Part shown: positions 26,031 to 51,284 of the stretch, in pieces
Layout: each line of letters opens with the position of its first letter
Position numbering within the stretch: position 1 is the stretch's first letter
Assembly: GCA_963666175.2 (NCBI GenBank)
Contig: CAXXTN010000007.1
Coordinates: 15,041-79,040 of the forward strand
Source of the DNA: Candidatus Poribacteria bacterium
Lineage (GTDB): Bacteria; Poribacteria; WGA-4E; WGA-3G
Reading direction: 5' to 3'
Length of the DNA: 64,000 nt
Position numbers and translations under genes: made by a program
The notes under the pieces: model-generated
The model's input: only the letters and a program-made list of their open reading frames with translations
The model's database searches: none
What the model was told of the DNA's origin: nothing

Positions 26031-26053
26031 ATCAAATATAAGAGAGATTGTTA

Positions 26054-32882: not shown

Positions 32883-34982
32883 TTACTTCAGGATTAGCAT
32901 TTTCCGGGTTGCAGAAAATTTTCCTGCTGTGATTCTATAGAAATAGATTCCACTAGCAACAGACTCACCTATATCATTTGTGCCATCCCAATACGCAGCT
33001 TGACTACGAGTTTGATATAAGCCAGCAGATTGATGACCAAGGTCAAATTGACGCACAATACTACCATGTGCATCATAAATGCTGATTTGCACCTCACTCG
33101 GTTTTGCTAAACGATAAGGTATCCATGTCTCAGGATTAAATGGGTTTGGGTAATTTGGTAGTAATGCTGATGATTGCGGAATTAAGGTTGCTAAGAGTTG
33201 TTCAAGTACCTGAATCCCTCGGTCATACGTTCGCTTGGGTTGATGTACAGACCTATCAATCGGCAAAGGTGACAATTGCTTTGAAACCTTTAACGACTGT
33301 TTCATCTGCACAGTATTAAGCTCCTGCTTAGCAAGCTGCAGCCACTGCTGTACTTGTGATGCGTGTAGTCCTTTAGCTGATGGGGCAGCAAGATTGCCAT
33401 TCCCAAAGCCGTTCGCTACTATGACCAGATCTTGAAAATTCACCAATCCATCACCATTGAGGTCGGCTTCCAGGGCACTTGAATCTCCGAATTTAGATGC
33501 GACCAATACTAAATCTAATATGTTGATAACATTGTCGTCGTTCAAGTCGCCAATCAGTGGCAGCCGATAGCCGGGAGTGCCAAGACTCATTTCTTCTGAC
33601 ACACCATCATCATATCCGAGACCATCTTTGTAGCCACTTTCATCCCATGCTTCTGCTTGATATCCGATAATATCAGGTTTTGACCGATACCATGCGACAT
33701 CAGTAGTTAGTAGAGGTGCAGTTACGGGTTTCACAGGACGATTCGGAAAATAATTACCAACGGTATCTTCATACCCACCATCAGCACTTTGCAGGAATAA
33801 CGCAAAATCAGTTGGTGGTAATCTGAAGGTTTCATCAATGACATAACTAACAGAACCGTCTCCAGGATCTGCTAATAAACTATCAGATGAATTCGGATCT
33901 GTATTTACAATCAACATCACCTCACCAGCAGGAATCGTTTCTCCTGTGGGAAATGTAATTGTAGTCATTCCTGAACCCGCGTGAATTGTCATCTGCCAAC
34001 CAGATAGGTCAATATCTTTATCACTAATATTTCGGAGCTCCAACCAATCATGTACATCGTTTGCCCCGTTATACAATTCGTTAAAGATAATTCTATCCAT
34101 AGAAAGCAGCGGCACCAGTTGATCAATTTCAACACTACTGACAGATGGCACCGCATCAACTTCTCCGAAACCTACTCCATGCACAATAAGAAGACAGTCA
34201 TTATTTGAGAGGGTATAACCTGGAGGACAACTTGTATCAGTTGAATTGGTAACATTAATAGTAACACTGATTGAATCCTCACTATTTGTCTGTTCTCCAG
34301 CGAACACATTAACAGTTACCGAATAGGAATTCTTAACTTCATAATCAAGCGCGGCTTCTGTTTTCAACTGCCCTGTACTTCCATCAATCTTAAATGAACT
34401 CGCATCTGTGCCACTAAGTGTGTACTTATCAAGATTGCTATTAAAGTTACTTGCGGCAACAGGATTACCGATGTTTGTATTAGCAGCCGTATTTTCGGCT
34501 ATAGAGCGGGTTGTACTATCTCCATCTGAAAACTGCAAGGATACATCAGTGACATTGATGGTGACAGAGATTGTATCTGTATCGGTGTAATTAGTAACTA
34601 TCGGACCAGTAATTGAATCTGAAAGAGGACTAAGACGGCCTTTTTGTGCCGCAACCGTTAATGAATAAGAAGACTTAGTTTCATAATCAAGTACAGTATT
34701 CGTTTTCAATTGTCCTGTACTACTATTAATAGTAAAGGAACTTGCATCGGTTCCCCTAATGACATATCGTCCTAATGAGGTACTAAAATTATGTGCTGAT
34801 ACAGCACTACCAACATTCGTATTTGTTGAAACATTTTCTGCAACGGATCGGGTAGTACTATCATCATGATAATGACCGGAGTCACCGCTATGTGCAAAAC
34901 AAGTACCCACAATACTCCAACACAGAAAAATGCCTACAAATACTTTTGCATAGACTCTTCTTTTTACAATCGTATGCTTCAT
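32883..34982 (-). CDS. Secreted cadherin-repeat / lamin-tail-domain protein with dockerin pair and T9SS-type CTD
   Basis: Two cadherin-like units (F.I...TGQLKT...LDYE.K.SYS+TV). An LTD-like segment follows (IIFNELYNG..DVHDWLELRNISDKDIDLSGWQM). Then come DLNDDNVINILDLVLV / DLNGDGLVNFQDLVIV and NYPNPFNPETWIPYRL...FSATRKMLILK. Confidence 0.8.
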   Translation of the reverse strand: MKHTIVKRRVYAKVFVGIFLCWSIVGTCFAHSGDSGHYHDDSTTRSVAENVSTNTNVGSAVSAHNFSTSLGRYVIRGTDASSFTINSSTGQLKTNTVLDYETKSSYSLTVAAQKGRLSPLSDSITGPIVTNYTDTDTISVTINVTDVSLQFSDGDSTTRSIAENTAANTNIGNPVAASNFNSNLDKYTLSGTDASSFKIDGSTGQLKTEAALDYEVKNSYSVTVNVFAGEQTNSEDSISVTINVTNSTDTSCPPGYTLSNNDCLLIVHGVGFGEVDAVPSVSSVEIDQLVPLLSMDRIIFNELYNGANDVHDWLELRNISDKDIDLSGWQMTIHAGSGMTTITFPTGETIPAGEVMLIVNTDPNSSDSLLADPGDGSVSYVIDETFRLPPTDFALFLQSADGGYEDTVGNYFPNRPVKPVTAPLLTTDVAWYRSKPDIIGYQAEAWDESGYKDGLGYDDGVSEEMSLGTPGYRLPLIGDLNDDNVINILDLVLVASKFGDSSALEADLNGDGLVNFQDLVIVANGFGNGNLAAPSAKGLHASQVQQWLQLAKQELNTVQMKQSLKVSKQLSPLPIDRSVHQPKRTYDRGIQVLEQLLATLIPQSSALLPNYPNPFNPETWIPYRLAKPSEVQISIYDAHGSIVRQFDLGHQSAGLYQTRSQAAYWDGTNDIGESVASGIYFYRITAGKFSATRKMLILK

Positions 34983-36848: not shown

Positions 36849-37021
36849 GGGTGTGTAAAGTTATTGGCAAAATATGCCAGTCACCATTGTAGGAGCAGGT
36901 CTCTGTGCCCGCCCGTTGCCTGACAGGACAAGGAATGGCGGGGCACAGAGACCCCGCACTACAATTGGTCACAGGTCCTTCACTTGAATTGACGCCTACG
37001 GTGACAAAACTTTACACACCC
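36849..37021. mobile_element. 173-bp MITE bounded by GGGTGTGTAAAGTT... / ...AAACTTTACACACCC inverted repeats
   Basis: The terminal inverted repeats are seen directly. The interior is a long GTAGG-headed hairpin (ccattgtaggagcaggtctctgtgcccgcc ... ggcggggcacagagaccccgcactacaattgg). The same termini occur at 20961, 21961, 22233, 63443 and 63907. Confidence 0.7.
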
Positions 37022-37135
37022 AGTACCGTATTATAATTGACTGTTCTAACTTTTCATGCTATATTTACATGATGTTTGGTAGTAATCCACACCAAACTGA
37101 CTTCACTCATCATACACAATTTTCGGAGGACAATT

Positions 37136-37501
37136 ATGCCATTAAAGACTTTAAAAGAACTTGTTGCAGAAGCAAAAGATAATGTTGGACACATTTCACC
37201 TGATGAACTTACGGATGCAGGCGAGTCCGTCATCCTTATTGATGTTCGGGATGAACCAGACTATGAAGAAGAACATCTACCAAATGCTGTCTCACTCCCT
37301 CGCGGTTATCTTGAACTTGACATTGATGAGATAACAACTGATGAGAACACGCATATTGTAACCTATTGTGGTGGTGGAACTCGTGCTACCCTATCTGCAA
37401 ACACCTTAAAAAACATGGGTTATGAGAATGTCTCAGTACTAACAGGAGGCTTTCGGGGTTGGAAATCATCAGGACTACCAACTGAAAAATCTGATATCTA
37501 A
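37136..37501 (+). CDS. Rhodanese-domain sulfurtransferase
   Basis: The start MPLKTLKEL is preceded by GGAGG. The single rhodanese domain has the active-site loop YCGGGTRA. Confidence 0.8.
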   Translation: MPLKTLKELVAEAKDNVGHISPDELTDAGESVILIDVRDEPDYEEEHLPNAVSLPRGYLELDIDEITTDENTHIVTYCGGGTRATLSANTLKNMGYENVSVLTGGFRGWKSSGLPTEKSDI

Positions 37502-37607
37502 CAATCTATATGTGTAGATTAGCATAAATCAATTGCCCTGTCAATTTCAGGATTATTGGTATTCTGAACGTTTCGCATCTATGATATGAACGTCCACAAA
37601 CTTTTAC

Positions 37608-38696
37608 ATGGATACTTTGGAGGCTTATATGCCATACATATCAAAATCTTATCTCTATTTACGTTATACCGTCAATTCTTTACTAATTATATGTATGATT
37701 GTTTCGCTATTACTGATAAGTAGTTGTAGTGATCAAAAACAACAGCTGAACGTCTTTACATGGTCTGGCTACGTCAATGATGAGATACGAACTGGATTTG
37801 AAAAGGAATTTGGTGTTAAAGTTGTTGTTGACACCTATGCTACAAACGAAGATCTTCTTGCTAAATTATCGGTTGGTGCTTCAGGATACGATATCATTAT
37901 GCCATCAGATTATATGGTTTCTATCATGATTAAATCAAATCTGTTAGCTGAGTTAAATCGAGATAATATCCCTAATTTTGATTCTATCAGTCCCGATTAC
38001 CTTGACAAGTACTTTGATCCTGAAAACCGTTATTCAGTTCCTTACACATTTGGCACAGCAGGAATCGCTTATGATTCAGATGTAGTTTCTCCCGCACCTG
38101 ATAGCTGGACAGTACTATGGAATGAAAAATATAAGAATCAATTCAGTATTCTTGATGACCCGCGTGAAACACCTGGATTAGCATTAAAAATGCTTGGATA
38201 TAGTCTCAATACAACCGATCCAGAAGAACTAAATCAAGCTAAAGAGAAATTAATTGAGCAAAAACCACTTGTAAAACAATACAAGAATGAGGCTGAAGAA
38301 CTTCTTATAGCAGGAGAAGTTGTAATGGCACACTGTTGGAGCGGTGATGCATTTCGCGCTGCAGCAGAACGTCCCTCTCTACGTTATGTAATTCCTAAAG
38401 AGGGGTCAAGTCAATTCATTGATAATGTCTGTATTCCAAAATCTGCACCAAATAAAGACCTTGCTGAAAAGTTTGTCAACTACCTTCTTCGTCCAGAGAT
38501 CAATGCAAGTGTATCTGCATTTACCAAGTATGGCACTTGTGTTCCTGCGGCTAAGGAACACCTACCCGATGAAATACTAAAACACGAATTTATCTATCCA
38601 TCTGTCGAAGTGTTGCAATCCCTTGAATGGATAAAAGACCTTGGAGATTTCTCAACCCAATACAGTCGCGCATGGGAGGAAATAAAGGCGAAATAA
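37608..38696 (+). CDS. Spermidine/putrescine ABC-transporter substrate-binding lipoprotein (PotD/PotF-like), orphan
   Basis: Lipobox LLISSC. LNVFTWSGYV...FEKEFGVKVVVDTYATNEDLLAKL..GASGYDIIMPSDYMV is the classic PotD N-terminus. No permease or ATPase genes are adjacent. Confidence 0.8.
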   Translation: MDTLEAYMPYISKSYLYLRYTVNSLLIICMIVSLLLISSCSDQKQQLNVFTWSGYVNDEIRTGFEKEFGVKVVVDTYATNEDLLAKLSVGASGYDIIMPSDYMVSIMIKSNLLAELNRDNIPNFDSISPDYLDKYFDPENRYSVPYTFGTAGIAYDSDVVSPAPDSWTVLWNEKYKNQFSILDDPRETPGLALKMLGYSLNTTDPEELNQAKEKLIEQKPLVKQYKNEAEELLIAGEVVMAHCWSGDAFRAAAERPSLRYVIPKEGSSQFIDNVCIPKSAPNKDLAEKFVNYLLRPEINASVSAFTKYGTCVPAAKEHLPDEILKHEFIYPSVEVLQSLEWIKDLGDFSTQYSRAWEEIKAK

Positions 38697-39065
38697 TTCA
38701 TTTTTAACAAACAATCCTTGTAGATTGAGTCTGTACAATCATCATACTCAATCTCTATCGCCTCTCAGAGATATTAAATTGTTGAGATTCTGTATTTTCT
38801 GAATCACAGATTTATGCCGATTGCACCAAATCAACGGTATAAATGTATTTGCGATATACTTCGGGAACCTCTTGCTATAATATTGAGACAGAATTTTGCG
38901 AATAGCTTCAAATAGTCTATGAAAAATAGGTTAAGTCATCCATAGTTTTCTGAAATATTTTGGACATGTGAAAAAAGCGAGAATAACATAAAACAAAATC
39001 GTCCAGGCAATGAAATCCAGAGGTACTCAATTGGTAAATAATTGCGCATCTTGATATAAACCTAG

Positions 39066-39165
39066 TAGGTTGGGTAGAGGAACGAAACCAATGGGGTAGA
39101 GAAATGAAACCAAACATGTTTGGATTTTCAAAGAAATGTTGGGATTCGTTCCGCTACCTAACCTA
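39066..39165. repeat. ~100-nt long hairpin repeat (GTAG-headed arms)
   Basis: The arms taggttgggtagaggaacgaaacc and gggattcgttccgctacctaaccta are inverted complements. The centre holds the perfect palindrome ccaaacatgtttgg. Confidence 0.6.
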
Positions 39166-39208
39166 AAGACTTGACAATTGAATGTCTCTGCTATGAAATA
39201 TGAATTTC

Positions 39209-39237
39209 TTTCTTATTATGAAATAGTATGGTATAAT
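39209..39237 (+). promoter_or_regulatory. Candidate extended -10 promoter for lysC
   Basis: TGgTATAAT at 39229-39237, with a weak -35 (tttctt) 17 nt upstream. It is compatible only with the downstream TTG start at 39276. Confidence 0.3.
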
Positions 39238-39275
39238 TGTTCTTAATAACATACATAATTTATGGAGGATTTGGA

Positions 39276-40640
39276 TTGATAAAAGTATCAAAGTTTGGCG
39301 GGAGTTCTCTCGCCAAAGGAGAGCAGATTCGTCAAGTCTGCGACATCATCACCGATGACCCTGCACGCAGAATAGTCGTTGTATCAGCACCCGGAAAACG
39401 ACACGACAATGACATCAAAGTCACCGACCTGCTTATTGCAGCTGCCTCTCAACGATTGATGGGAAAGATCGGTGCATCCGAATGTGCAGAAGTTATTGAA
39501 CGTTACCGTAATATTGCTATTGAATTGGAACTTCCCTCAGAGATTATTGAAGCTATAGCACACGACTTCACCGAACGTCTTGAGGGCAACACAGATGATG
39601 CGGATCTTTATATGGATACGATGAAGGCGGGTGGCGAAGATAATTGTGCCCGTTTGATTGCTCAGGTGTTGCAGTCACGTGAGGTTGAAGCACATTATGT
39701 AAATCCGAAAGATGCTGGACTACTCCTTTCAGATGAACCGGGGAATGCACATGTACTACCAGAAGCATATAACCGTTTGCGTACGTTAAATGAACGTCAA
39801 GGTATAACCATTTTTCCAGGCTTTTTCGGTTATTCAAATGACGGACACATTGTAACTTTCTCTCGTGGTGGTTCTGACATTACAGGAGCAATTCTCGCCA
39901 GTGCCGTTCGTGCAGAAGTATATGAGAATTTCACAGATGTTGACTCTGTGTTCGCAGCAAATCCATCTATTATATCAGATCCTGCCGCAATTTCAGAACT
40001 TACCTACCGTGAAATGCGCGAGTTATCTTATGCAGGATTCTCTGTGTTTCACGATGAAGCACTTGAACCTGTTTATCGTGCTATGGTGCCTGTCCACATC
40101 CGTAATACAAATAATCCTGAAGCTGCTGGCACACTGATTATTCCTGAATGTAACTCAAGGAAAACCCCAGTTGTCGGCATCGCAGCAATGAGCAATGTCT
40201 GTTGTGTATATCTCAGCAAATATCTGATGAATCGTCAGATAGGATTCGGAAGACGTTTATTACAGATATTGGAAGCAGAAAACATCTCTTTTGAACATGT
40301 TCCATCAGGTATTGACAACATGTCAGTTATCATACGCGAAGAGAACCTACCATCAGAAAAAGAGAAACGTGTTGTAGAAAAGATAAGACAAACACTTGCA
40401 CCAGAAGATGTCTCTGTTCAACGAGGATTATCTCTCATCATGGTTGTTGGTGAAGGGATGCAGCATACTGTTGGAGTAGCCGCGCAGGCAACCTGTGCCT
40501 TAGCAAGGTCTGATGTTAATATAGAAATTATCAACCAAGGTTCAAATGAAGTCAGTATGATGTTCGGTGTAAAGTCATCTGATATGGAAGTTGCAGTTCA
40601 AGCACTCTACAAGGAATTTTTTGATGGTCATAACAGTTAA
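39276..40640 (+). CDS. lysC: Aspartate kinase
   Basis: (L)IKVSKFGGSSLA with GGAGGA 8 nt upstream of the TTG. Also present are VVVVSAPG, FPGFFGYS..G.IVTFSRGGSD and C-terminal ACT-type repeats. Confidence 0.85.
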   Translation: MIKVSKFGGSSLAKGEQIRQVCDIITDDPARRIVVVSAPGKRHDNDIKVTDLLIAAASQRLMGKIGASECAEVIERYRNIAIELELPSEIIEAIAHDFTERLEGNTDDADLYMDTMKAGGEDNCARLIAQVLQSREVEAHYVNPKDAGLLLSDEPGNAHVLPEAYNRLRTLNERQGITIFPGFFGYSNDGHIVTFSRGGSDITGAILASAVRAEVYENFTDVDSVFAANPSIISDPAAISELTYREMRELSYAGFSVFHDEALEPVYRAMVPVHIRNTNNPEAAGTLIIPECNSRKTPVVGIAAMSNVCCVYLSKYLMNRQIGFGRRLLQILEAENISFEHVPSGIDNMSVIIREENLPSEKEKRVVEKIRQTLAPEDVSVQRGLSLIMVVGEGMQHTVGVAAQATCALARSDVNIEIINQGSNEVSMMFGVKSSDMEVAVQALYKEFFDGHNS

Positions 40641-41448
40641 ACCAAAAGAATTATCTGCGGGTAAACTCTCAGATAAACATGTCAAACAAGCCATTGAAGC
40701 GATCCTTATTGATGGGTATGTTGTTCTGGAGAACATTATCAAACATGAACATTTGGATATCTTGAGGGAACGCATGGATGCCGATTCGCAAAAGTTGATA
40801 AAAGCTGGAAAATGGGGTGGGGCAGGAATGCTCAAAGGACATCTACAACAGGGACCTCCACCGTTTGCTCCTTATATTTTTAGCGACATTGTTGCGAATC
40901 CCTATGTCATACAGGTGACAAAGGAATTGCTTGGAGAGGGAGTCTACAACAATTTTTACAACGGAAACACGAATTGTCCAGGTAGTGGCATACAACCGCT
41001 TCATCGAGATAGTGATCATTTGTGGCAAAATCAGGAAGTTGCTCATCCAACGGCTGAGGTTGTTGTGAATATATCTCCTCAGGATACAACGGAGGAAAAT
41101 GGGAGTGTAGAGTTGTGGCCGGGTTCGCATCTGGATGTGAGTGGCAGACATATTGATGATGACCATGAAGCTGAACGTCGTGAAACAGCACCACCGATAC
41201 GGGGAAGTGCGAAAAAAGGGAGCGTATTAATACGCGATATGCGTCTTTGGCATAGAGGTGTACCGAACTGTTCTGACGAACCACGACATATGATTGCGAT
41301 GATTCACCGAATCCGCTGGCTCCGTTCAGGGAGACGCTTAAAGTATCAAACTGGATGTGAAAAAGCATTTGAGAACAGTGAACTTGATCATAATGCCGAA
41401 TTTGTTGATGAGAAATTGGATGACTATCTCTTCACTCCTAAATTCTAA
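40624..41448 (+). CDS. Phytanoyl-CoA dioxygenase (PhyH)-family 2OG-Fe(II) oxygenase
   Basis: Contains the HxD motif PLHRDSD, GSVELWPGSH and the distal His in RLWHRGVPN. The start is either M at 40591 or, as I prefer, 40624. Either start overlaps the 3' end of lysC. Confidence 0.75.
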   Translation: MVITVKPKELSAGKLSDKHVKQAIEAILIDGYVVLENIIKHEHLDILRERMDADSQKLIKAGKWGGAGMLKGHLQQGPPPFAPYIFSDIVANPYVIQVTKELLGEGVYNNFYNGNTNCPGSGIQPLHRDSDHLWQNQEVAHPTAEVVVNISPQDTTEENGSVELWPGSHLDVSGRHIDDDHEAERRETAPPIRGSAKKGSVLIRDMRLWHRGVPNCSDEPRHMIAMIHRIRWLRSGRRLKYQTGCEKAFENSELDHNAEFVDEKLDDYLFTPKF

Positions 41449-41475
41449 GTAATTGACAACCATGAGGTATAGACG

Positions 41476-43974
41476 ATGAGAAGATTCGGAACTCAAGGTC
41501 CTGTTAATTCTCAAGAACACTATGTAGTGTCACGTAGTAATGAACTTGCTGATTACATTGACCGTGTGAAACAAGGCAGATACATCGTACTTTTTGCTCC
41601 ACGTCAAAGTGGAAAGACGACATTCTTCAAAGACGCACTCAAGGTGCTTTCGGAAGAAAACGAATCTTTTTTTCCAATTCAACTCAATTTTGAGATTTAT
41701 AAAAATTGTTCACCCGAAGTATTCTATCAGGATATACTTGAAGACATTCGTGAAGAAATTCAAACGATCTATAGTAAACGGGGTGTTAATCATTCATCTA
41801 AACTTATAGAATATTTTGAGAGTACACAATTAACGAACCATATTGATTTTGGTCGTTTTCTTAGACAATTAGCTAATTTTCTCATACAAGAGTCAGATGC
41901 ATCTATAATTCCGCGTGTTGTTATAATAATCGACGAATTTGATGGAATACCACAAACTGTTGTGAGCGACTTTCTACATACACTCCGAAGGATTTATCTT
42001 TCTGATAGAGTGGTTCGCTCCCCGTATAGTGTTGGTATTGTCGGTGTAAAGAGCATTACACAACTGAACTATGATCGCTCTGTTTCACCATTTAATATTC
42101 AAGACGAGTTCACGTTACCAAACTTTTCACATCAACAGGTACGTGAATTGTTCGGTCAATATACGGATGAAGTTGGACAATTAATTGCTCCAGATGTCTT
42201 GGAGTTACTTCATAAACAGACCTCTGGACAACCCTTTCTCGTTAATCGACTTGCTCAGATTCTAACTGAGGATCTTGATATTGCAAAGAGCGATACAATT
42301 GAGATATCACACTTTCTGCAAGCACACGCTATTCTCCTTGAAGAACGAAACACAAACATAGACCATCTGACAACAAATATTCGTAGGGATCGTAAGTATG
42401 AATCGATGTTGATGGAAATAGCTTTTTCTGATGATGGAAAACGATTTAACTTACGAAATGAGACTATTAGTGATCTTGTAACATACGGTGTCATAAAAAA
42501 AGGTGAAGATGGACTATGTGAAATATTAAATCCGATTTATCTGTATTGTATTATTCAAACATTTCAACCACCTGGAAATGGTCTTGAAAGTGAATATTTC
42601 TCTGATGACGGTCCATTAGATTTTACTGGATATTTGACTTCATCTGGGAAGATACAGATGGATGCATTGATAGACAATTTCATTGCGCGTGTTGGATATA
42701 AAATACTACAAGTTCCAGATACACCACAAGAATTTGTTGGACAATATTTGCTTTCAGCGTATTTAGACCAGTTTGTTCAGACAGTAGGTGCATCAATTCG
42801 TTTAGAAGTTCAGACAGGGAGAGGTCGAGCAGACATTGTCGTCTCTCATAACGGTGATCAATATATCATTGAAACAAAGGTATGGCGAAGCGAACGACGT
42901 TATGAATTAGGAAAACAGCAACTTGCAGAATATATGAAATTGGAAAATACTACGCAAGGTTACTATGTAGTATTTGACCATCGTGAGAACCCAAGTCCCT
43001 TAGTTGAAACTGACACCATGGATGACTTGACCATTCGGAGTTATGTAATTCCAGTTCTACAAAAGCCGCCTTCCCAACATCTTTCTGAACAGCAATTCTC
43101 GTATTTAAGTCAGGAAACACAAGATTTGGTGACGAGTATGAAATATGAAACAAACTGGCTGCCTGCTGAACCCGATCTTAAAACAGTTTGTAAAAACTAT
43201 GAAGACCCAATCTATTCCCTTTCACAAGCAGAGATTCCTGCAATTATCCTTCGTAATGCCTATTCACCAGAACAATGTGCAGGTCTTATAAATCGCTTTA
43301 CCAATATGGGATTGATGCGAGATGAAGCTGATATGAACTCAGCAGACAAACGGACGAGAATTGATATTGGAACAAGCCTTGGTAATCGAGGAAACGACAA
43401 AGAAGATTTTTTGGCACACGCGAAAGCCACACACCATCTTTTTAAACATATGTTTGATGGATTTGCCAATCCAGTTGACCTGATTTATGAATCACTTGCA
43501 GCACTTTCTCCAGGAAAGGATGTAAAGGTTGCACGTGAAGAAGATGGTTCTCTCTATGGTCCTGCCATCTTTCGCGTTCATTATGAAACGCATAGTTACA
43601 AACCACACATTGACAGCGTAAAATATCGCGAACAACGAACTGATTATGCTGTCTATCGTTTTGAACACCAATTCGCGGGTGTTTTGTGTATTCAAAATGC
43701 AGATGCAAATGGGAAAGGAACTCAAGCCATATTACACCGTTGTCTATGGTCAGAAGCTGTTCAACCTTACATTGCTGAAGAAACATTCGACCAATATGCT
43801 GCTGAGAATAGTATAGAGAACTGTCAAGTTGATTTGAAACAGGGTGATCTCTACTTTTTCAATACACGATGTATCCACGAAGTTCCTGCTGTTCAAGGAA
43901 CTCGCGCCAGAATTGTTTTGGCAGTATTTATCGGTTATTCTCCTGATGAAGACGAAATCTATGTTTGGTCGTGA
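41476..43974 (+). CDS. Fusion protein: AAA_35/ORC-like P-loop ATPase + PD-(D/E)XK nuclease-like domain + 2OG-Fe(II) dioxygenase-like domain
   Basis: Walker A is APRQSGKTT (aa 41-49) and Walker B is VVIIIDEFD. SGQPFLVNRL resembles the TGGHPYLV motif of AAA-like domain proteins. GRGRADIVVSHNGDQYIIETKVW (aa ~448-470) fits the D...ExK nuclease core. The C-terminal domain has H-I-D (aa 711-713), CIHEV (H801) and RARIVLAVF. Confidence 0.8.
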   Translation: MRRFGTQGPVNSQEHYVVSRSNELADYIDRVKQGRYIVLFAPRQSGKTTFFKDALKVLSEENESFFPIQLNFEIYKNCSPEVFYQDILEDIREEIQTIYSKRGVNHSSKLIEYFESTQLTNHIDFGRFLRQLANFLIQESDASIIPRVVIIIDEFDGIPQTVVSDFLHTLRRIYLSDRVVRSPYSVGIVGVKSITQLNYDRSVSPFNIQDEFTLPNFSHQQVRELFGQYTDEVGQLIAPDVLELLHKQTSGQPFLVNRLAQILTEDLDIAKSDTIEISHFLQAHAILLEERNTNIDHLTTNIRRDRKYESMLMEIAFSDDGKRFNLRNETISDLVTYGVIKKGEDGLCEILNPIYLYCIIQTFQPPGNGLESEYFSDDGPLDFTGYLTSSGKIQMDALIDNFIARVGYKILQVPDTPQEFVGQYLLSAYLDQFVQTVGASIRLEVQTGRGRADIVVSHNGDQYIIETKVWRSERRYELGKQQLAEYMKLENTTQGYYVVFDHRENPSPLVETDTMDDLTIRSYVIPVLQKPPSQHLSEQQFSYLSQETQDLVTSMKYETNWLPAEPDLKTVCKNYEDPIYSLSQAEIPAIILRNAYSPEQCAGLINRFTNMGLMRDEADMNSADKRTRIDIGTSLGNRGNDKEDFLAHAKATHHLFKHMFDGFANPVDLIYESLAALSPGKDVKVAREEDGSLYGPAIFRVHYETHSYKPHIDSVKYREQRTDYAVYRFEHQFAGVLCIQNADANGKGTQAILHRCLWSEAVQPYIAEETFDQYAAENSIENCQVDLKQGDLYFFNTRCIHEVPAVQGTRARIVLAVFIGYSPDEDEIYVWS

Positions 43975-44137
43975 CACAACGTCTTATGGCTATCAATTTT
44001 CAGACGACTAAGATTCAAACAATAGAGACCTTCCCGTCATTGAATGACCTTCAAGTACATAATACTTCTTAAAGGACATTATCAAATGCTAAACCCCAAC
44101 TCTATTTGGAATAATACAGAAAAGGATATCCTCCATA

Positions 44138-47026
44138 ATGAAAATAGATAGAATAGTTTCTTTGCTAATTTTACTTACTATTTCACCACTATTCCTGACT
44201 AACGTCATTGCTCAAACTTCAAGTCAATTTAATCTACCTGAGAATGCAACTGCACGACTTGGTAAAGGTAGGTTGAGTGAAGTCGAATATTCTCCAGACG
44301 GTTCACATTTGGCAGTGGTCAGTTCCATCGGTATTTGGCTCTATGATACACAAACTTATACAGAAACAGCACTACTTACAGGAGATACTGAGACAGTCTA
44401 TTGTGTTGCTTTCAGTTCAGATAGTCAAACGCTTGCAAGTGGCAATGGTGATGGTTCTATATTACTCTGGGATGTTTCTACAGGTACAAATCTACATACA
44501 TTTACAGGACACACGGATGTTGTCTTAAGCGTAGCATTTAGTTCGGATGGACAGACTCTTGCAAGTGGTAGCGGTGATGGGACAATACGACTTTGGAATT
44601 ATTCAACACGCGAATATCAGAGAACACTTTCTGGACATTTTGATTCAGTTACAAGTGTAGTGTTCAGTTCAGGAGGGACAACGCTTGCAAGTGGAAGTTT
44701 GGATACATCTGTTCAGATATGGGATGTTGCCACAGGAGAACAGGAACACGTTCTTATTGGTCATGAAGATTCTATATATAGTGTCGCCTTCAGTCCAACT
44801 GAATCGACCCTGGCAAGTGCGAGTCGTGATGGAACAATCCGGTTGTGGTATACTGCCTTTGGTGTATTAAAGCAGACATTAATCGGACATGAAAGTTCTG
44901 TATATGATGTTGCATATAGTCCCAATGGCAATACAATTGCCAGTAGTAGTGCTGATGGATCTGTACTTTTGTGGGATTCCGTTTCTGGTCAAGCACAACA
45001 AGCCCTTATTGGTCATACTCACGTTGTGCTGAGCGTTGCATTCAATTCCACTGGCGGAACGATAGCCAGTGGTGGCGCAGATGGGACTGTCCGATTATGG
45101 GATGCAACCTTTGGTGGACAACGACAAGCACTTACTGGATATACAAGTTATATCTTAGATACTGCCTTTAGTACCGATGGTAGTACAATTGCAAGTAGTG
45201 GATCGGATGCTGCAATTAATTTGTGGAATGCAAATACAGGTCAACATAACCAGGAATTGTTAGGACATGAGGATTGGATTTGGAGTATTGTATATAGTCC
45301 TGATGGTAGCACAATTGCAAGTGGTAGTGATGACGGCACAATACGGTTATGGGATAGCTCCACAGGTGAACCTCAGAGAACTTTTGAAGGACATACAGAT
45401 TGGGTCTGGAGTGTAGCATATAGTCCTGATGGTAGCACAATTGCAAGTGGTAGTGAAGATGGGACAATACGGCTATGGGATGCAGTCCTGGGTGGTAACA
45501 TCATGACACTTGATGAACAGGGTGGCTCAATACTTAGCGTCGCATTTAGTCCCGATGGTAAAATGATTGCAAGTGGCAGTACCGATGAAACAATACGATT
45601 ATGGGATGCAGTTACTGGTGAACTTAAACAGACGTTTATTGGACATACGGATTATGTCAGAAGTGTTGCATTTAGTCCCAATGGAAATATCCTAGCAAGT
45701 GGGAGCGATGATGGTACTGTGCGACTATGGGATACTATTTTTGGTGTAGAATTGGAGAGATTTACTGAACATACAGGTTTAGTCTGGAGTGTAGCATTTA
45801 ATAGTAGTGGTGATATTCTTGCAAGTGGCAGTAACGACAGGACTGTTCGCCTATGGGATACTATATCTGGTCAACTCCTACAGACTTTAACAGGACATAC
45901 AAGTGGTATATTAAGTGTTGCATTTAACCCAAGTGGAAACACGCTTGCAAGTGCAAGTTCTGATGGCACAGTCCTTGTATGGAATTATACGCCACCCTTA
46001 ACCTCATATCCTACTGTAAATCTTTCTCCAACTCCCGTACAATCCTCAGCGATCGGTGGACTCTTAACATTCAATCTCAATATAGAAGATGCAGGAAGTA
46101 TTTTTGGATATCAAGCAACCATCAGATATGATGAATCCGCATTGCGTTATGTAAGTAGTTCAAATTCAGATTTCCTTGCATTTGGAGCCTATTCTGTCTC
46201 ACCTATAATTCAAGACAATTCTGTCACAATTGCTGCAACATCTCTTGGTGGACAAAGTTTTGGTGCAGGGACATTGGCTAGTCTTACATTTGAAGTGGTA
46301 TCCCTAAAGCCCTCCACAATAACTGTTTCTAAGGTTAGATTGACTGACTTCTCAGGGAAAGTATATTACGCTAGGGTTGGTGTGGCACAGATAACTGAAC
46401 CTATGCGGCAACAAGGTGACCTAAATGGTGATGGCGTTGTGAACATTCAAGATTTGACTTTAGTTGCATCAAACTTTTCACAGGAGGGAGAAAATCTGGC
46501 AGATGTCAATGGTGACGGTATTGTTGATATTGTGGACCTAACAATTGTAGCCGCAGCAATGGTTTCTTCTACTCCAGCTGCACCCGAAAAATGGATGGAC
46601 GGTGTTGAGTATACTCTTACAAGATCAGAAGTGCAAGCGTGGTTGGATGAAGCAAAACAATTGACATTGACAGATCCTACTTTTCAACGCGGTATTTTAG
46701 TCTTGGAACAACTACTTGTAGTATTAACACCGGAAAAAACTATCCTGTTACCAAACTTCCCGAATCCATTCAATCCTGAAACTTGGATTCCATACCAACT
46801 GTCTGAATCCGCAGCTGTGGCTATCCAGATCTATGCTACGGATGGACATTTGATACGCACATTAGATATTGGTAATCAATCTGCTGGACATTATCAACAC
46901 AAGGATAATGCAGCGTATTGGGATGGAACAAACAACTTAGGTGAACTCGTTTCAAGCGGTGTTTATTATTATACATTAACTGCTGGAAAGTATACTGCAA
47001 CCCGTAAAATGTTGATTTTGAAATAA
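44138..47026 (+). CDS. Secreted multi-WD40 protein with cohesin-like domain, dockerin pair and T9SS-type CTD
   Basis: 962 aa with a signal peptide and about 14 WD40 units. The cohesin-like segment at ~46015-46395 reads LTFNLNIEDAGSIFGYQATIRYDESALRYV...GAGTLASLTFEVVS. Then come DLNGDGVVNIQDLTLV / DVNGDGIVDIVDLTIV and NFPNPFNPETWIPYQL...YTATRKMLILK. Confidence 0.9.
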   Translation: MKIDRIVSLLILLTISPLFLTNVIAQTSSQFNLPENATARLGKGRLSEVEYSPDGSHLAVVSSIGIWLYDTQTYTETALLTGDTETVYCVAFSSDSQTLASGNGDGSILLWDVSTGTNLHTFTGHTDVVLSVAFSSDGQTLASGSGDGTIRLWNYSTREYQRTLSGHFDSVTSVVFSSGGTTLASGSLDTSVQIWDVATGEQEHVLIGHEDSIYSVAFSPTESTLASASRDGTIRLWYTAFGVLKQTLIGHESSVYDVAYSPNGNTIASSSADGSVLLWDSVSGQAQQALIGHTHVVLSVAFNSTGGTIASGGADGTVRLWDATFGGQRQALTGYTSYILDTAFSTDGSTIASSGSDAAINLWNANTGQHNQELLGHEDWIWSIVYSPDGSTIASGSDDGTIRLWDSSTGEPQRTFEGHTDWVWSVAYSPDGSTIASGSEDGTIRLWDAVLGGNIMTLDEQGGSILSVAFSPDGKMIASGSTDETIRLWDAVTGELKQTFIGHTDYVRSVAFSPNGNILASGSDDGTVRLWDTIFGVELERFTEHTGLVWSVAFNSSGDILASGSNDRTVRLWDTISGQLLQTLTGHTSGILSVAFNPSGNTLASASSDGTVLVWNYTPPLTSYPTVNLSPTPVQSSAIGGLLTFNLNIEDAGSIFGYQATIRYDESALRYVSSSNSDFLAFGAYSVSPIIQDNSVTIAATSLGGQSFGAGTLASLTFEVVSLKPSTITVSKVRLTDFSGKVYYARVGVAQITEPMRQQGDLNGDGVVNIQDLTLVASNFSQEGENLADVNGDGIVDIVDLTIVAAAMVSSTPAAPEKWMDGVEYTLTRSEVQAWLDEAKQLTLTDPTFQRGILVLEQLLVVLTPEKTILLPNFPNPFNPETWIPYQLSESAAVAIQIYATDGHLIRTLDIGNQSAGHYQHKDNAAYWDGTNNLGELVSSGVYYYTLTAGKYTATRKMLILK

Positions 47027-48161: not shown

Positions 48162-48752
48162 GACTTGTGTACTAACATTGAGTAAATCTCTATTTTGGAA
48201 AATACTTAGAACTAAATAGCCCTGCTTCATAACCCATTGTTTATGACGCATTCCTCTCTTTTCAATTACCTCATCCCTGTTGACTATGGCATAAGTCTGT
48301 CCTATTTGCAAAATCCAGAATATTCTCAAGTTCTATTCCTTCTAAATGCACTAATCTGTGCAGCATGCTAATTGTATGCACATTTTGGTGCAGAATGACT
48401 ATTTCCAATAGCAATTCTGATAAATAAGACTTTAGAATGCAATTGTAGGTTCACACTGCGGGAAGAATGTAGGAGAGGTAATGAATTCAGCGAAAACAAA
48501 TGTGTCTTCAGTTAATGAGAAGTAGCGAATTAGAAGTCAGTAATATGGCAACTGGCATAAGATTTGCTATGATTATGTAGGAGTTCGCGTTCATTTTGAA
48601 TTGACAAGTTTGATAAAAAGCGGATGTTAACTTCTAATAATATTCCTTAGTAGGTCATCCTTAGAACTAAATTGTCCTGACTCTTACAATCTCTCAGCAG
48701 GAGACTAATCTGCAACGCGTTGGGTGGTCATACGAAAAGAGGAGACATAGTT

Positions 48753-51284
48753 ATGAGAACATTACATCTATCAATTGCATTATGTATTTCCATTCTTGTT
48801 TTTCTTCCCTCAAATGCCTTTGCTGAAGATTATTCTAACTGGAGTTTGCCAGAGGGGGCAAAATTACGTATTGGCAAAGGAAGTGTGGGTAGTTTACGGT
48901 TTTCAGATGATGGCAATCGACTAATTGTTGGTGGTAGTATAGGTTATTGGATATATGACGCGCATTCTGGTGTGGAACTTGATTTAATTCCAGCGAATCC
49001 AAATAACATAATTGGCATGAGTCCTCATGGACAAATGTATGTAGAAAGAACTCTTGACCATACAGTAAATGTCCGAAATTTATCAGATCGTAGCGTCATA
49101 ACAACTTTACAAGGGGATAATTCTGATATCTATTATGTGCGATTTAATCTTGAAAAGAACATACTTGCAAGTGACATTGGTGGTGAAATACGTGTATGGG
49201 ATCTTAGCACAGGTGAACTAAAGACCTCTATTGATTTAGAAACAGATTGGATATATGATGTTGTCTTGAGTCCAGATGGAACAAAACTTGCGAGCATCAG
49301 TAAAGATTCAGATGATCGTGTATTTCAATTATGGGATGTCGCTACAGGTTCACATATAACCACATTATCCACATTTGCGTTCAATATTCGCGAGCTTGTT
49401 TTCACTCCCGACAGCAATATGATTATAAGTGGAAGTGAAAATTCTATCCAATTTTGGGATATTGCTGCTGGGAAAAGAACCCTTAATTTCAGGACTCCAT
49501 ACTTTCATAAACTTGCTGTAAGTCCAGATGGAAACAAACTTGTGACTCGTGGTCAAGGAGGATTACATTTTTGGGACATAGAAACAGGGAATTATCTTGC
49601 TAATTTTGGTGAACATCAGTTGGGATGTTGTTCTATTGCATTTAGTCCAGATGGAAAAACGTTGGCAAGTGGTGGTGGTGGGAGTAGTGAACTGTATCTG
49701 TGGGATATAGCAAGTGGTGATCGTAAGTTAACGATTTTTGGACATATAAAAGGGGTTGCGAGTTTAGCAATCAGTCCAAATGGTAATATCCTCGCCTCAT
49801 CAAATTGGGATAACATCCACTTTTGGGATCCTAACACAGGTGAATACAAGCAGATGATATATGGACGTGGACGGCACTCATATCATACTAATTTAGTTTT
49901 CAGTCCCGATGGAAACACACTTGCCAGTATAGATTATGGGGCAATTCACCTTTGGGATATTTCAAACAAAACACAAATAACGACCATTTATAGTTGGTAT
50001 GGACATGGACCTGGACCGGAAAACCCACCTACATCATCAGACGGATATAACTCAGTTGCCTTTAGTCCAGATGGTCAATACATTGCCTCTGGACATGGTG
50101 ATAATACAATACATTTTTGGTATAAAGGACGAACCTATATAGACGTGCTTAAAGGACATACTGACAAAGTAACTTCAATTGCATTCTTTAATGATAGTCA
50201 CATGCTTGTTAGTGGCAGCCATGATGGCACAGTACGTTTATGGGATTTTAATTCCCGAACAAATTTAGAAACTTTTACCGGACATACAGATAAGATTAAT
50301 TCTATTGCATTAAGTCCAGATGACAGTATTGTTGCAAGTGGAAGTGATAATAATACGATTATTATAAGGGATATTACAACTGGTCATCAGAAGGTAATAC
50401 AGACAGATCATACTGAGGGGGTACACGAACTTACATTTAGTATTGATGGGAAGACACTTGTCAGTTGTGGAAATTGGAAGGATTCGATCATACAGATATG
50501 GGATGTTACCAATGCAGAATTGATTACAAACATCACAACACATACTTATGGAGGTGGCGTAGTTGACTTTAGTCCTGATGGTAGAACTCTAATAAGTGGG
50601 AGTCGTGATGGAACTATTCTGTTTTGGGATTACAATCAGTTAATTGGTGATGATGTTGAAACACAAGAAATAGCTGAAGATGCGAATCGTGATGGCATTA
50701 TAAATCTTCAGGACTTGATTTTTGTTGCGTCCCAATTTGGAGAAGTCGGAAATTCCAATACAGCTGATGTCAATGGGGATGGCGTTATCAATATCGCGGA
50801 TATCCTACTAGTTGCTGCTGCACTTGCTAATGAGAATGCAGCACCATCTAATTATTCTAAATTAGATAACGTATTAGATGCTGCAGTAGTTGAACAATGG
50901 TTAATTCAAGCACAACGTCTCAACAGGAATATACCGAAATTCCAGATAGGTATTGCAGTTCTTAGGCAACTATTAGCTGCGATGACACCAGAAAAGACGA
51001 TGCTTTTGGCTAACTATCCAAACCCATTCAATCCTGAAACTTGGATACCGTATCAGTTAGCAGAGCATGCGGATGTAACACTACGCATCTATTCTTCTGA
51101 TGGACAGTTGATTCGGACAATAGCATTGGGTAATCAATCTTCTGGGATGTATCAGAATCGTAGCCGGGCAGCATATTGGGATAGCAACAATGAAAATGGT
51201 GAACCTGTCGCAAGCGGAGTCTATTTCTATACACTAACTGCTGGGAACTTCACAGCAACACGTCGAATGGTCATACGAAAATAG
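48753..51284 (+). CDS. Secreted multi-WD40 protein with dockerin pair and T9SS-type CTD
   Basis: I place the start at MRTLHLSIAL (signal peptide ...SNAFAEDY). It has more divergent WD40 units. The C-terminal region reads DANRDGIINLQDLIFV / DVNGDGVINIADILLV and NYPNPFNPETWIPYQL...FTATRRMVIRK. Confidence 0.9.
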   Translation: MRTLHLSIALCISILVFLPSNAFAEDYSNWSLPEGAKLRIGKGSVGSLRFSDDGNRLIVGGSIGYWIYDAHSGVELDLIPANPNNIIGMSPHGQMYVERTLDHTVNVRNLSDRSVITTLQGDNSDIYYVRFNLEKNILASDIGGEIRVWDLSTGELKTSIDLETDWIYDVVLSPDGTKLASISKDSDDRVFQLWDVATGSHITTLSTFAFNIRELVFTPDSNMIISGSENSIQFWDIAAGKRTLNFRTPYFHKLAVSPDGNKLVTRGQGGLHFWDIETGNYLANFGEHQLGCCSIAFSPDGKTLASGGGGSSELYLWDIASGDRKLTIFGHIKGVASLAISPNGNILASSNWDNIHFWDPNTGEYKQMIYGRGRHSYHTNLVFSPDGNTLASIDYGAIHLWDISNKTQITTIYSWYGHGPGPENPPTSSDGYNSVAFSPDGQYIASGHGDNTIHFWYKGRTYIDVLKGHTDKVTSIAFFNDSHMLVSGSHDGTVRLWDFNSRTNLETFTGHTDKINSIALSPDDSIVASGSDNNTIIIRDITTGHQKVIQTDHTEGVHELTFSIDGKTLVSCGNWKDSIIQIWDVTNAELITNITTHTYGGGVVDFSPDGRTLISGSRDGTILFWDYNQLIGDDVETQEIAEDANRDGIINLQDLIFVASQFGEVGNSNTADVNGDGVINIADILLVAAALANENAAPSNYSKLDNVLDAAVVEQWLIQAQRLNRNIPKFQIGIAVLRQLLAAMTPEKTMLLANYPNPFNPETWIPYQLAEHADVTLRIYSSDGQLIRTIALGNQSSGMYQNRSRAAYWDSNNENGEPVASGVYFYTLTAGNFTATRRMVIRK

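Follow-up and report, generated by a model that had tools for sequence, protein, structure and literature searches.

A window of 64,000 nucleotides (nt) of DNA from a Candidatus Poribacteria bacterium (contig CAXXTN010000007.1 of assembly GCA_963666175.2, positions 15,041 to 79,040, forward strand) was examined around an unusual fused gene. The gene occupies nt 41476 to 43974 of the plus strand as one open reading frame (ORF) of 832 codons without interruption, and it follows genes for a lysC-type aspartokinase and a PhyH-family dioxygenase. Its product consists of an AAA_35-type P-loop ATPase with a helical, winged-helix-like extension (residues 1-420, nt 41476-42735), a PD-(D/E)XK-type domain (residues 421-526, nt 42736-43053), a disordered linker (residues 528-559, nt 43057-43152) and a WelO5-family dioxygenase part that depends on Fe(II) and 2-oxoglutarate (2OG) (residues 555-832, nt 43138-43974). 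This last part equals a free-standing gene of 278 amino acids (aa) in sister lineages. A first-pass annotation of the bare sequence had described a three-domain fusion paired with a PhyH-family neighbor. The single 832-aa ORF, the Pfam matches, the AlphaFold2 (AF2) models and 17 protein clusters of the same architecture all support this description, and the catalytic residues that it named (H711, D713, H801, R812, D453, E466 and K468) are all present.

The N-terminal part is a member of the AAA_35 family (PF14516), which it matches over residues 8 to 318 with 47.7 bits (Pfam cut-off 27). The Walker A motif (41-APRQSGKTT-49) is encoded by nt 41596-41622 and the Walker B motif (150-IIIDEFD-156) by nt 41923-41943. 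Two more motifs, SPFN (residues 204-207) and GQP (residues 251-253), are found family-wide. Conservation was counted in an alignment of 79 relatives, with 46 or 47 sequences per scored position. G46, K47 and T49 of Walker A are kept in 46/46 sequences and T48 in 45/46; D153 and E154 of Walker B are kept in 46/46. GKTT and DE are also kept across 26 relatives with 23 to 67% identity. A search of the Protein Data Bank (PDB) with a 26-member family profile found an archaeal ATPase (2fna, E = 4.5e-4) and ORC4 (E = 1.1e-3) for this part of the protein. STAND NTPases are built from a P-loop NTPase, a helical GxP module, a winged helix, a C-terminal repeat or sensor region and an N-terminal effector. 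The GQP motif and the helical domains are STAND-like traits, and some relatives show weak NPHP3_N and AAA_16 matches; neither Pfam nor the AF2 model revealed a STAND-type repeat sensor or an N-terminal effector in the window protein. A signal peptide-like N-terminus is absent, and Walker A begins at residue 41. A literature search for AAA_35/PF14516 returned unrelated papers only.

In the PD-(D/E)XK core, of topology alpha-beta-beta-beta-alpha-beta, strand 2 carries D and strand 3 carries (D/E)-x-K. A separate AF2 model of residues 365 to 531 (predicted local distance difference test score, pLDDT, 83.6; predicted template modeling score, pTM, 0.81) has this core. Its helices (H) and strands (E) run H56-73, E76-80, E88-94, E97-106, H109-126 and E130-137 in the domain model. 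D453 opens strand 2 and E466-x-K468 lies within strand 3, as in PD-(D/E)XK enzymes. The nuclease residues were found to be conserved among homologs, D453 in 46/46 and E466 and K468 each in 45/46 of the aligned sequences; across the whole family E466 never varies, and conservation of D453 and K468 is at least 90%. Foldseek with the domain model gave McrC (probability 0.96) and BglII (0.94) as best matches and, at lower probability (0.30-0.91), a splicing endonuclease, DdmD, CinB, PspGI and EndoMS, none of these at E<1e-3. Precomputed database matches label this middle domain DUF8371 (PF28130). Pfam matches of NERD, PDDEXK_3 and SfsA to residues 430-502 are weaker than that of PDDEXK_9, and a Cas4 match is weak as well (E = 0.04-0.06 in PADLOC and in the PDB profile search). 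We tentatively assign the domain as a putative nuclease from its motif, its modeled topology and weak fold matches, with no Pfam match above threshold.

The two domains together had been annotated as the 'AAA-ATPase_like/PDDEXK_9' type. The general plan of an ATPase followed by a PD-(D/E)XK domain was borne out, but the Pfam thresholds of PF09820 and PF08011 were not reached and AAA_35 plus DUF8371 were found instead. Proteins of the DUF1703 type (AAA-ATPase_like PF09820 plus PDDEXK_9 PF08011) share the plan of an N-terminal ORC/archaeal-type ATPase and a C-terminal PD-(D/E)XK domain in about 500-550 aa. The window protein scores 15.2 bits against a cut-off of 26.1 for PF09820 and 21.2 bits against a curated cut-off of 25.5 for PF08011 (residues 430-502). 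Because it fails both thresholds, its ATPase-nuclease half belongs to a family that is distinct from DUF1703 but related to it. It would be an NTP-driven protein acting on nucleic acids, DUF1703-like in general kind.

The C-terminal part matches WelO5 (PF22814) over residues 572-832 with 94.5 bits (cut-off 27), covering positions 9-277 of the 277 in the profile, and is a member of this family. The predicted metal site is formed by H711 (nt 43606-43608), D713 (nt 43612-43614) and H801 (nt 43876-43878), and R812 (nt 43909-43911) is the 2OG-binding residue; all four are kept in 47/47 aligned sequences. The AF2 model of the whole protein has a mean pLDDT of 77 and a pTM of 0.50, with the ATPase and the helical part moderately confident. 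Residues 560-832 are modeled with pLDDT of about 90 as the double-stranded beta-helix of the Fe(II)/2OG superfamily, whose hallmarks also include an H-x-D/E...H metal triad and a basic residue for the C5 carboxylate of 2OG. Foldseek of the full-length model against the PDB returned only dioxygenase matches, WelO5 first (E of about 1e-14, template modeling (TM) score 0.73-0.80 on the target), with the WelO5 G166D (H-x-D) variant 5iqu on top; phmmer against the PDB also found WelO5, 5iqu again being best. The C-terminal double-stranded beta-helix with an intact facial triad, as originally annotated, is thus upheld and can be refined to the WelO5 family. The carrier-protein-independent halogenases WelO5, AmbO5 and Wi-WelO15 (PF22814; 5iqs, 5iqt, 6gem) have the second His, the 2OG-binding Arg and a C-terminal '...IYxWS' in common with the window protein. 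WelO5-type aliphatic halogenases have Gly or Ala in place of the carboxylate ligand (H-x-G/A), an exchange that makes room for halide coordination, and the G166D variant of WelO5 hydroxylates and does not halogenate. WelO5 itself carries a chloride-binding H-x-G, whereas the window protein (H711-I-D713) and all 47 aligned relatives carry H-x-D. A halogenase class was rejected on this ground, and the same difference leads us to read the dioxygenase part as a probable small-molecule hydroxylase. Sequence identity to WelO5 is 16-18%, and the window holds no hapalindole-type biosynthetic cluster.

The second structural neighbor is SadA, an N-substituted L-amino acid dioxygenase of Burkholderia ambifaria (3w20/3w21; E = 2e-8, TM 0.61-0.66). 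SadA is a free-standing small-molecule hydroxylase with a carboxylate facial triad, as in the window dioxygenase; its identity to the latter is low (15-18%), and nothing at this locus indicates N-acyl amino acid substrates. The lysC neighbor hints, loosely, at amino-acid chemistry. Among NCBIfam models HilA matched the C-terminal end of the dioxygenase weakly, and no function was transferred from it. Identity to free-standing orthologs is 77-94% within Poribacteria and 63-68% for those of Caldilineaceae and others. Outside Poribacteria, one WelO5-like gene follows a creatininase-family gene (L094:7237-8837) and another a neutral ceramidase-family gene (L009:7613-9837). Such neighbors may be hints to the substrate class; the two contexts are inconsistent with each other.

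The 17 protein clusters with the fused architecture share PF14516, PF28130 and PF22814, are 70-95% identical and come from Candidatus Poribacteria where named. Sixteen of them are 834-835 aa long and one is truncated at 788 aa. At the level of loci, the gene is fused in six (the window, L001, L002, L003, L013 and L014) and split in nine (L004, L005, L007, L015 and L017-L021). The split loci keep the order lysC, PhyH, ATPase-nuclease and WelO5-like gene at the orthologous place, with an ATPase-nuclease of 538-551 aa followed by a WelO5-like gene of 278-282 aa. The junctions form a series. In the L007 type, '...SESRFS' is followed by two stops and a spacer of about 20-40 nt, and the dioxygenase lies in another frame. 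L005 has an in-frame spacer containing two stops. In L004 one in-frame TGA is the sole difference, '...SRES*SLETSMKPEKNWLPAEPDL' compared with '...SQETQDLVTSMKYETNWLPAEPDL' in the window protein. The former stop codon and intergenic spacer correspond to about nt 43096-43137. The first-pass annotation had itself warned that a frameshift or assembly join around nt 43050-43200 would leave two separate genes. An old gene boundary does lie there, but independent assemblies agree on the read-through, so that an artefact is not indicated. In favor of a sequencing or assembly error, by which two real genes lost the intervening stop codon or came into one frame, it can be said that sister lineages have two genes and that L004, at 81% identity, differs by one in-frame TGA. 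The 17 clusters, however, stem from independent samples and assemblers, multi-megabase contigs and GTDB representatives among them, and all read through; their linkers differ in sequence and yet stay in frame. We consider such an error extremely improbable. The TGA of L004 (L004:3861-3866, where fused forms have Gln) was found in a short Logan contig and could reflect a genuine return to two genes, a codon that is read through or an error in sequencing.

Comparison with the split loci identifies M555 (ATG at nt 43138-43140) as the codon at which the dioxygenase gene once began. In the split forms this ATG follows a GGAGG at a distance of 6 nt. GGAGA is found at the same distance in L001, L002, L003, L013 and L014 (five of the six fused loci) despite their differing linkers, and the window has a Shine-Dalgarno-like GGTGA (nt 43128-43132), so that nt 43128-43140 are read as a relic translation start. 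Separate initiation of the dioxygenase at M555 may persist. Linker residues 528-559 are disordered in the AF2 model (pLDDT <50). In a neighbor-joining tree, which carries no support values, the fused forms, L004 and L005 form one clade; the L007-type split orthologs are placed apart from it, a placement that we do not interpret. At an ATPase identity of 60-76%, pairs of fused forms share 84.8% identity in the dioxygenase, pairs of split forms 82.5% and mixed pairs 83.6%, which gives no sign that the fusion changed the constraint on the enzyme. The architecture had been thought rare, and this was confirmed: an exhaustive HMMER search with the whole protein against 1.84 billion cluster representatives gave 2862 matches, and each of the best 150 covers residues 1-540 or residues 556-832 but never both halves. 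Loss of the stop codon between two neighboring genes of one direction is a general route to bacterial gene fusion. The present case does not differ from it in principle, only the resulting domain combination being unusual, and one locus offers the full series of states from a short spacer through in-frame stops and a single stop to read-through.

Each half was also found without the other. In L093 the row consists of lysC, PhyH and the dioxygenase gene, with a 73-nt gap, and lacks the ATPase gene; the three genes are 77-78% identical to those of the window. In L095 (a 4.78-Mb contig) the flanking genes are as in the window, and the gene at this place (L095:6001-7122) encodes 373 aa. Its residues 1 to about 23 are joined in frame to about residue 480 onward; the deletion removes Walker A and B, the helical part and D453, E466 and K468, and leaves the linker and the dioxygenase intact, the latter 86% identical to that of the window. 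The break lies between the similar stretches 'ELADY' (about residue 23) and 'QLAEY' (about residue 482 of the window protein), which suggests a deletion by microhomology. Outside Poribacteria, WelO5-like proteins of 277-279 aa with 63-68% identity stand alone in varied metabolic contexts, and no ATPase, PhyH or lysC gene was found near them in Caldilineaceae and others. Insertion sequence (IS) genes or remnants were observed just upstream of lysC, IS605-type TnpA/TnpB in L093 (3910-5481) and IS630-type fragments in L001 (4376-5229). Rearrangements therefore seem to occur at the left border of the conserved row.

The ATPase-nuclease half belongs to a large family. Relatives were scanned in one genome per species with an 8-sequence alignment as query, and at least 578 were found across the species-representative genomes. 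Contexts were read for the best 80 loci, all of them Poribacteria. Only 9 of the 80 loci (at least 65% identical) lie in the lysC-PhyH-...-dioxygenase row. The other 71 are paralogs with 56-64% identity in the ATPase-nuclease, and no WelO5, lysC or close PhyH homolog was found within 8 kb of them, although some flanks hold unrelated PhyH-family genes at 22-28% identity. Up to four copies occur on one chromosome among the best 80 of the at least 578 loci, and the paralogs occupy at least eight further conserved syntenic positions in Poribacteria. These are found after miaA/mnmA, between a cytochrome-c assembly gene (ccsA-like) and hemA, before PorV, before an epimerase, before a 3-keto-disaccharide hydrolase, and beside WYL and DarT-Macro genes (examples among L022-L092 are L054:6970-9602, L060:7110-11097 and L070:8001-10570). 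They are often co-directional with their housekeeping neighbors, with spacers of a few to about 100 nt. In the neighbor-joining tree the Poribacteria copies are monophyletic with respect to the outgroups, and the same holds for most syntenic groups; the copies are thus old paralogs and not recent transpositions. A recent mobile element was also considered for the ATPase gene and rejected, since the paralogs are 56-64% identical and each has its own conserved synteny. DUF1703 proteins have likewise expanded into paralogs in insect symbionts, 25 in a Cardinium symbiont and others in Rickettsia symbionts (PMC6387759). Both they and the Poribacteria AAA_35/PD-(D/E)XK proteins are lineage-specific expansions of divergent paralogs in host-associated bacteria.

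One paralog group stands directly upstream of a gene for a DarT + Macro polypeptide of 389-395 aa (L053:9694-10866; also L033, L036 and L044), and other members of this group adjoin a WYL-domain protein instead. DarT is a single-stranded DNA thymidine ADP-ribosyltransferase. This setting is the sole defense-looking context among the paralogs. More distant relatives (23-39% identity, about 510-550 aa) keep Walker A/B, SPFN, GQP and D...E-x-K. A C-terminal TIR domain follows the nuclease domain in one of them (P0265) and replaces it in another (P0328); P0261 has an N-terminal receiver domain and P0307 a second ATPase. The TIR fusions suggest a role in biological conflicts for at least some members of the family.

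On a Rosetta-stone reading the two halves would cooperate, and their fusion would make the partnership permanent. The dioxygenase would then serve an NTP-switched nuclease as its effector or as a sensor for O2, 2OG, Fe or a metabolite, and the protein would be a conflict- or defense-like device or one that couples oxidative modification to cleavage. The pair is adjacent in 15/15 ATPase-bearing loci and fused in six of them, every catalytic residue is retained, and in the TIR-bearing AAA_35 relatives (P0265, P0328) the TIR domain takes the C-terminal position where the window protein has the dioxygenase. The ATPase also has a profile similarity to RdrA of RADAR (E = 0.02, not significant), a defense system that pairs the RdrA ATPase with a metabolite-modifying enzyme (PMC9994260). 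The genomes, however, argue against coupling. L093 does without the ATPase gene, and L095 has lost the ATPase-nuclease core and kept the dioxygenase; the 71 paralog loci have no dioxygenase partner, free-standing dioxygenase orthologs in other phyla have no ATPase nearby, and the fusion does not recur among the best 150 of the 2862 HMMER matches. Independent co-occurrence or fusion, and mutual need, were not found, the fusion being confined to one Poribacteria clade. The dioxygenase evolves at an equal rate whether fused or split, and the nearest structures, WelO5 and SadA, are small-molecule enzymes. A PADLOC-DB 2.0 scan gave nothing significant (best E = 2e-4 for a generic 2OG model and 1.6e-3 for the nuclease part of LmuA), and the fusion neighborhood, with lysC, PhyH, WD40 and secreted proteins, a solute-binding protein and an oxidoreductase, is not a defense island. 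We regard functional coupling, the main rival reading, as unlikely.

The first-pass annotation had seen in the three domains the logic of a conflict or defense device, or hydroxylation coupled to cleavage. Neither idea is supported for the fusion as a whole, given the split loci, L093, L095, the lone halves and the PADLOC result. One point still favors the conflict idea for the ATPase-nuclease half alone, namely the C-terminal TIR of distant relatives. In comparison with multidomain NTPase conflict proteins, the add-on here is a housekeeping-like enzyme taken from a neighbor by stop-codon loss. It also differs from conflict proteins with swappable effectors in being dispensable in both directions and in giving no significant PADLOC match.

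The genes upstream of the fusion belong to the same row. The lysC-type aspartokinase (AA_kinase and ACT domains by Pfam) has a maximal ORF from 39237 to 40640 on the plus strand. Its homologs are 450-458 aa long, and the true start is probably a little downstream of the maximal-ORF start. It is the first gene of the conserved row lysC-PhyH-(ATPase)-dioxygenase and lies directly upstream in every orthologous locus. The PhyH-family Fe(II)/2OG dioxygenase gene (plus strand, nt 40624-41448 within an ORF of nt 40591-41448) encodes 274 aa from the ATG at nt 40624, a start supported by homolog lengths of 274-279 aa. It overlaps the end of lysC (stop codon at nt 40638-40640) by 17 nt and is followed after 27 nt by the fused ORF; both the overlap and the spacing agree with what had been annotated. 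The protein is a member of PF05721 (62.6 bits, cut-off 22), and its metal and 2OG residues were read by eye as H127-x-D129, H210 and R221. Its orthologs (73-98% identical) are unnamed or labeled PhyH family only. NCBIfam gave ectoine hydroxylase at 24 bits against a cut-off of 336, and no function was transferred. A Poribacteria PhyH enzyme has been reported to demethylate 2'-O-methyl nucleosides (PMC12709175); this role was considered for the PhyH neighbor and dropped at 25% identity over part of the length and a different subfamily. The PhyH gene had been described as paired with the fusion gene. It is indeed usual, being present in 14/15 ATPase-bearing loci (and in L093 and L095), but it is not obligatory: L003 has no PhyH gene, and its lysC runs straight into the fusion gene with an overlap. 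PhyH belongs to the older lysC-PhyH-dioxygenase row and not to the ATPase gene.

Along the row the genes overlap or are separated by very short intergenic spacers, compatible with a single transcript. An Rfam search of nt 36900-44300, including the region upstream of lysC, found no lysine riboswitch or other element at E<=1. Promoter-like and terminator-like sites in nt 38600-44300 were as many as expected from shuffled sequence and say nothing on operon structure. A regulatory role was weighed against this layout. The ATPase would be a STAND-/ORC-like switch that binds DNA through the PD-(D/E)XK domain, which looks catalytically competent, and the winged helix and controls the lysC-PhyH-dioxygenase operon, and the fusion would tether the regulator to an enzyme whose substrate or product it senses. 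The ORC/archaeal-ATPase-like signature with a GxP-like motif is in keeping with this role, as are the short spacers and the receiver domain of the single distant relative P0261. The paralogs, however, adjoin functionally unrelated genes, and on either side, which is a poor fit to a per-operon regulator; the nuclease triad is strictly kept, which is unusual for pure DNA binding; and the operon exists without the gene in L093 and with the gene destroyed in L095. We think it quite improbable that the protein is such a regulator.

We favor, with a probability of about 0.68, a lineage-specific read-through fusion of two adjacent, co-directional and functionally independent genes. The split loci, L093, L095, the lone paralogs and the lone dioxygenases all point to halves that are independent and speak against an integrated system. 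The first gene is one of the old Poribacteria paralogs amid housekeeping genes, an AAA_35 ATPase with a C-terminal PD-(D/E)XK domain. The second is a strongly conserved, normally free-standing H-x-D enzyme of the WelO5 family that belongs to the older lysC-PhyH-dioxygenase row, with the ATPase gene placed between PhyH and it. In one subclade of these sponge symbionts the ATPase gene lost its stop codon, and translation continues through about 14 former-spacer codons in the frame of the dioxygenase. Most likely the product has the two activities next to each other, joined by a flexible linker of about 30 residues and presumably without cross-talk, and the retained Shine-Dalgarno-like motif and M555 may permit separate synthesis of the dioxygenase. 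The N-terminal 526 residues are expected to act as the free-standing paralogs do, in NTP-dependent binding and cleavage of nucleic acid, possibly in defense or as a formerly selfish element. The C-terminal 278 residues would use Fe(II), 2OG and O2 to hydroxylate the same small molecule as the free-standing orthologs, and this activity is probably part of the lysC-PhyH-dioxygenase row.

Several points weigh against a fusion of independent genes. The adjacency is tight and old, the pair being kept with little or no spacer in 15/15 ATPase-bearing loci. The fusion persists over 70-95% identity with the catalytic motifs of all three domains intact, as a functional link would also have it. The scaffold accepts C-terminal enzymatic add-ons in conflict-looking proteins (TIR in P0265). 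The three activities are predicted from sequence and models, and the ATPase gene may have been either inserted into an L093-type arrangement or lost from it. An adaptive form of the fusion was also considered. In this Poribacteria clade an NTP-switched nuclease would have recruited a WelO5-type oxygenase as a covalently attached sensor or effector at the position of TIR. The resulting device would target nucleic acids under the control of O2, 2OG or a metabolite, or would modify its target by oxidation. We hold this reading to be improbable. We know of no described class of nuclease-oxygenase devices of this kind. Should the fusion prove functional, the protein would be the first example of an ATPase-nuclease scaffold with an attached oxygenase.

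The architecture is new and its origin ordinary, from known kinds of parts. The case is a caution and a teaching example in that a conflict-system-like architecture can be traced stepwise to one stop-codon loss, and one locus supplies the natural controls, with the ATPase gene absent, separate, fused or internally deleted. Two by-products possibly outweigh the fusion in value. One is the set of old AAA_35 + PD-(D/E)XK paralogs that occur throughout the phylum inside or beside housekeeping operons. The other is the WelO5-family enzyme with H-x-D, which is highly conserved (63-68% identity between phyla) and a candidate selective aliphatic hydroxylase.

Other genes in the window were also noted. 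Directly downstream of the fusion gene, nt 44138-47026 (plus strand) encode a 962-aa protein with 13 WD40 repeats, whose C-terminal region resembles by eye a secretion/sorting tail. It is one of four large WD40-repeat proteins (849-986 aa) within 25 kb, the others being encoded at nt 29776-32736 (minus strand), 48720-51284 (plus strand) and 51295-53844 (plus strand). They are eukaryote-like repeat proteins, typical of sponge symbionts. A 602-aa ORF (nt 26048-27856, plus strand) has no Pfam match at E<=1e-5. It is followed after 26 nt by a gene for a 618-aa protein (nt 27883-29739, plus strand), whose sole match is a classical AAA domain at residues 368-488. A 699-aa protein with cadherin, lamin-tail, FlgD-Ig and type IX secretion (Por_Secre_tail) domains is encoded at nt 32883-34982 (minus strand) and is probably a secreted adhesin. 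The presence of several WD40 proteins and of this cadherin/Por_Secre_tail protein in the window fits Poribacteria.

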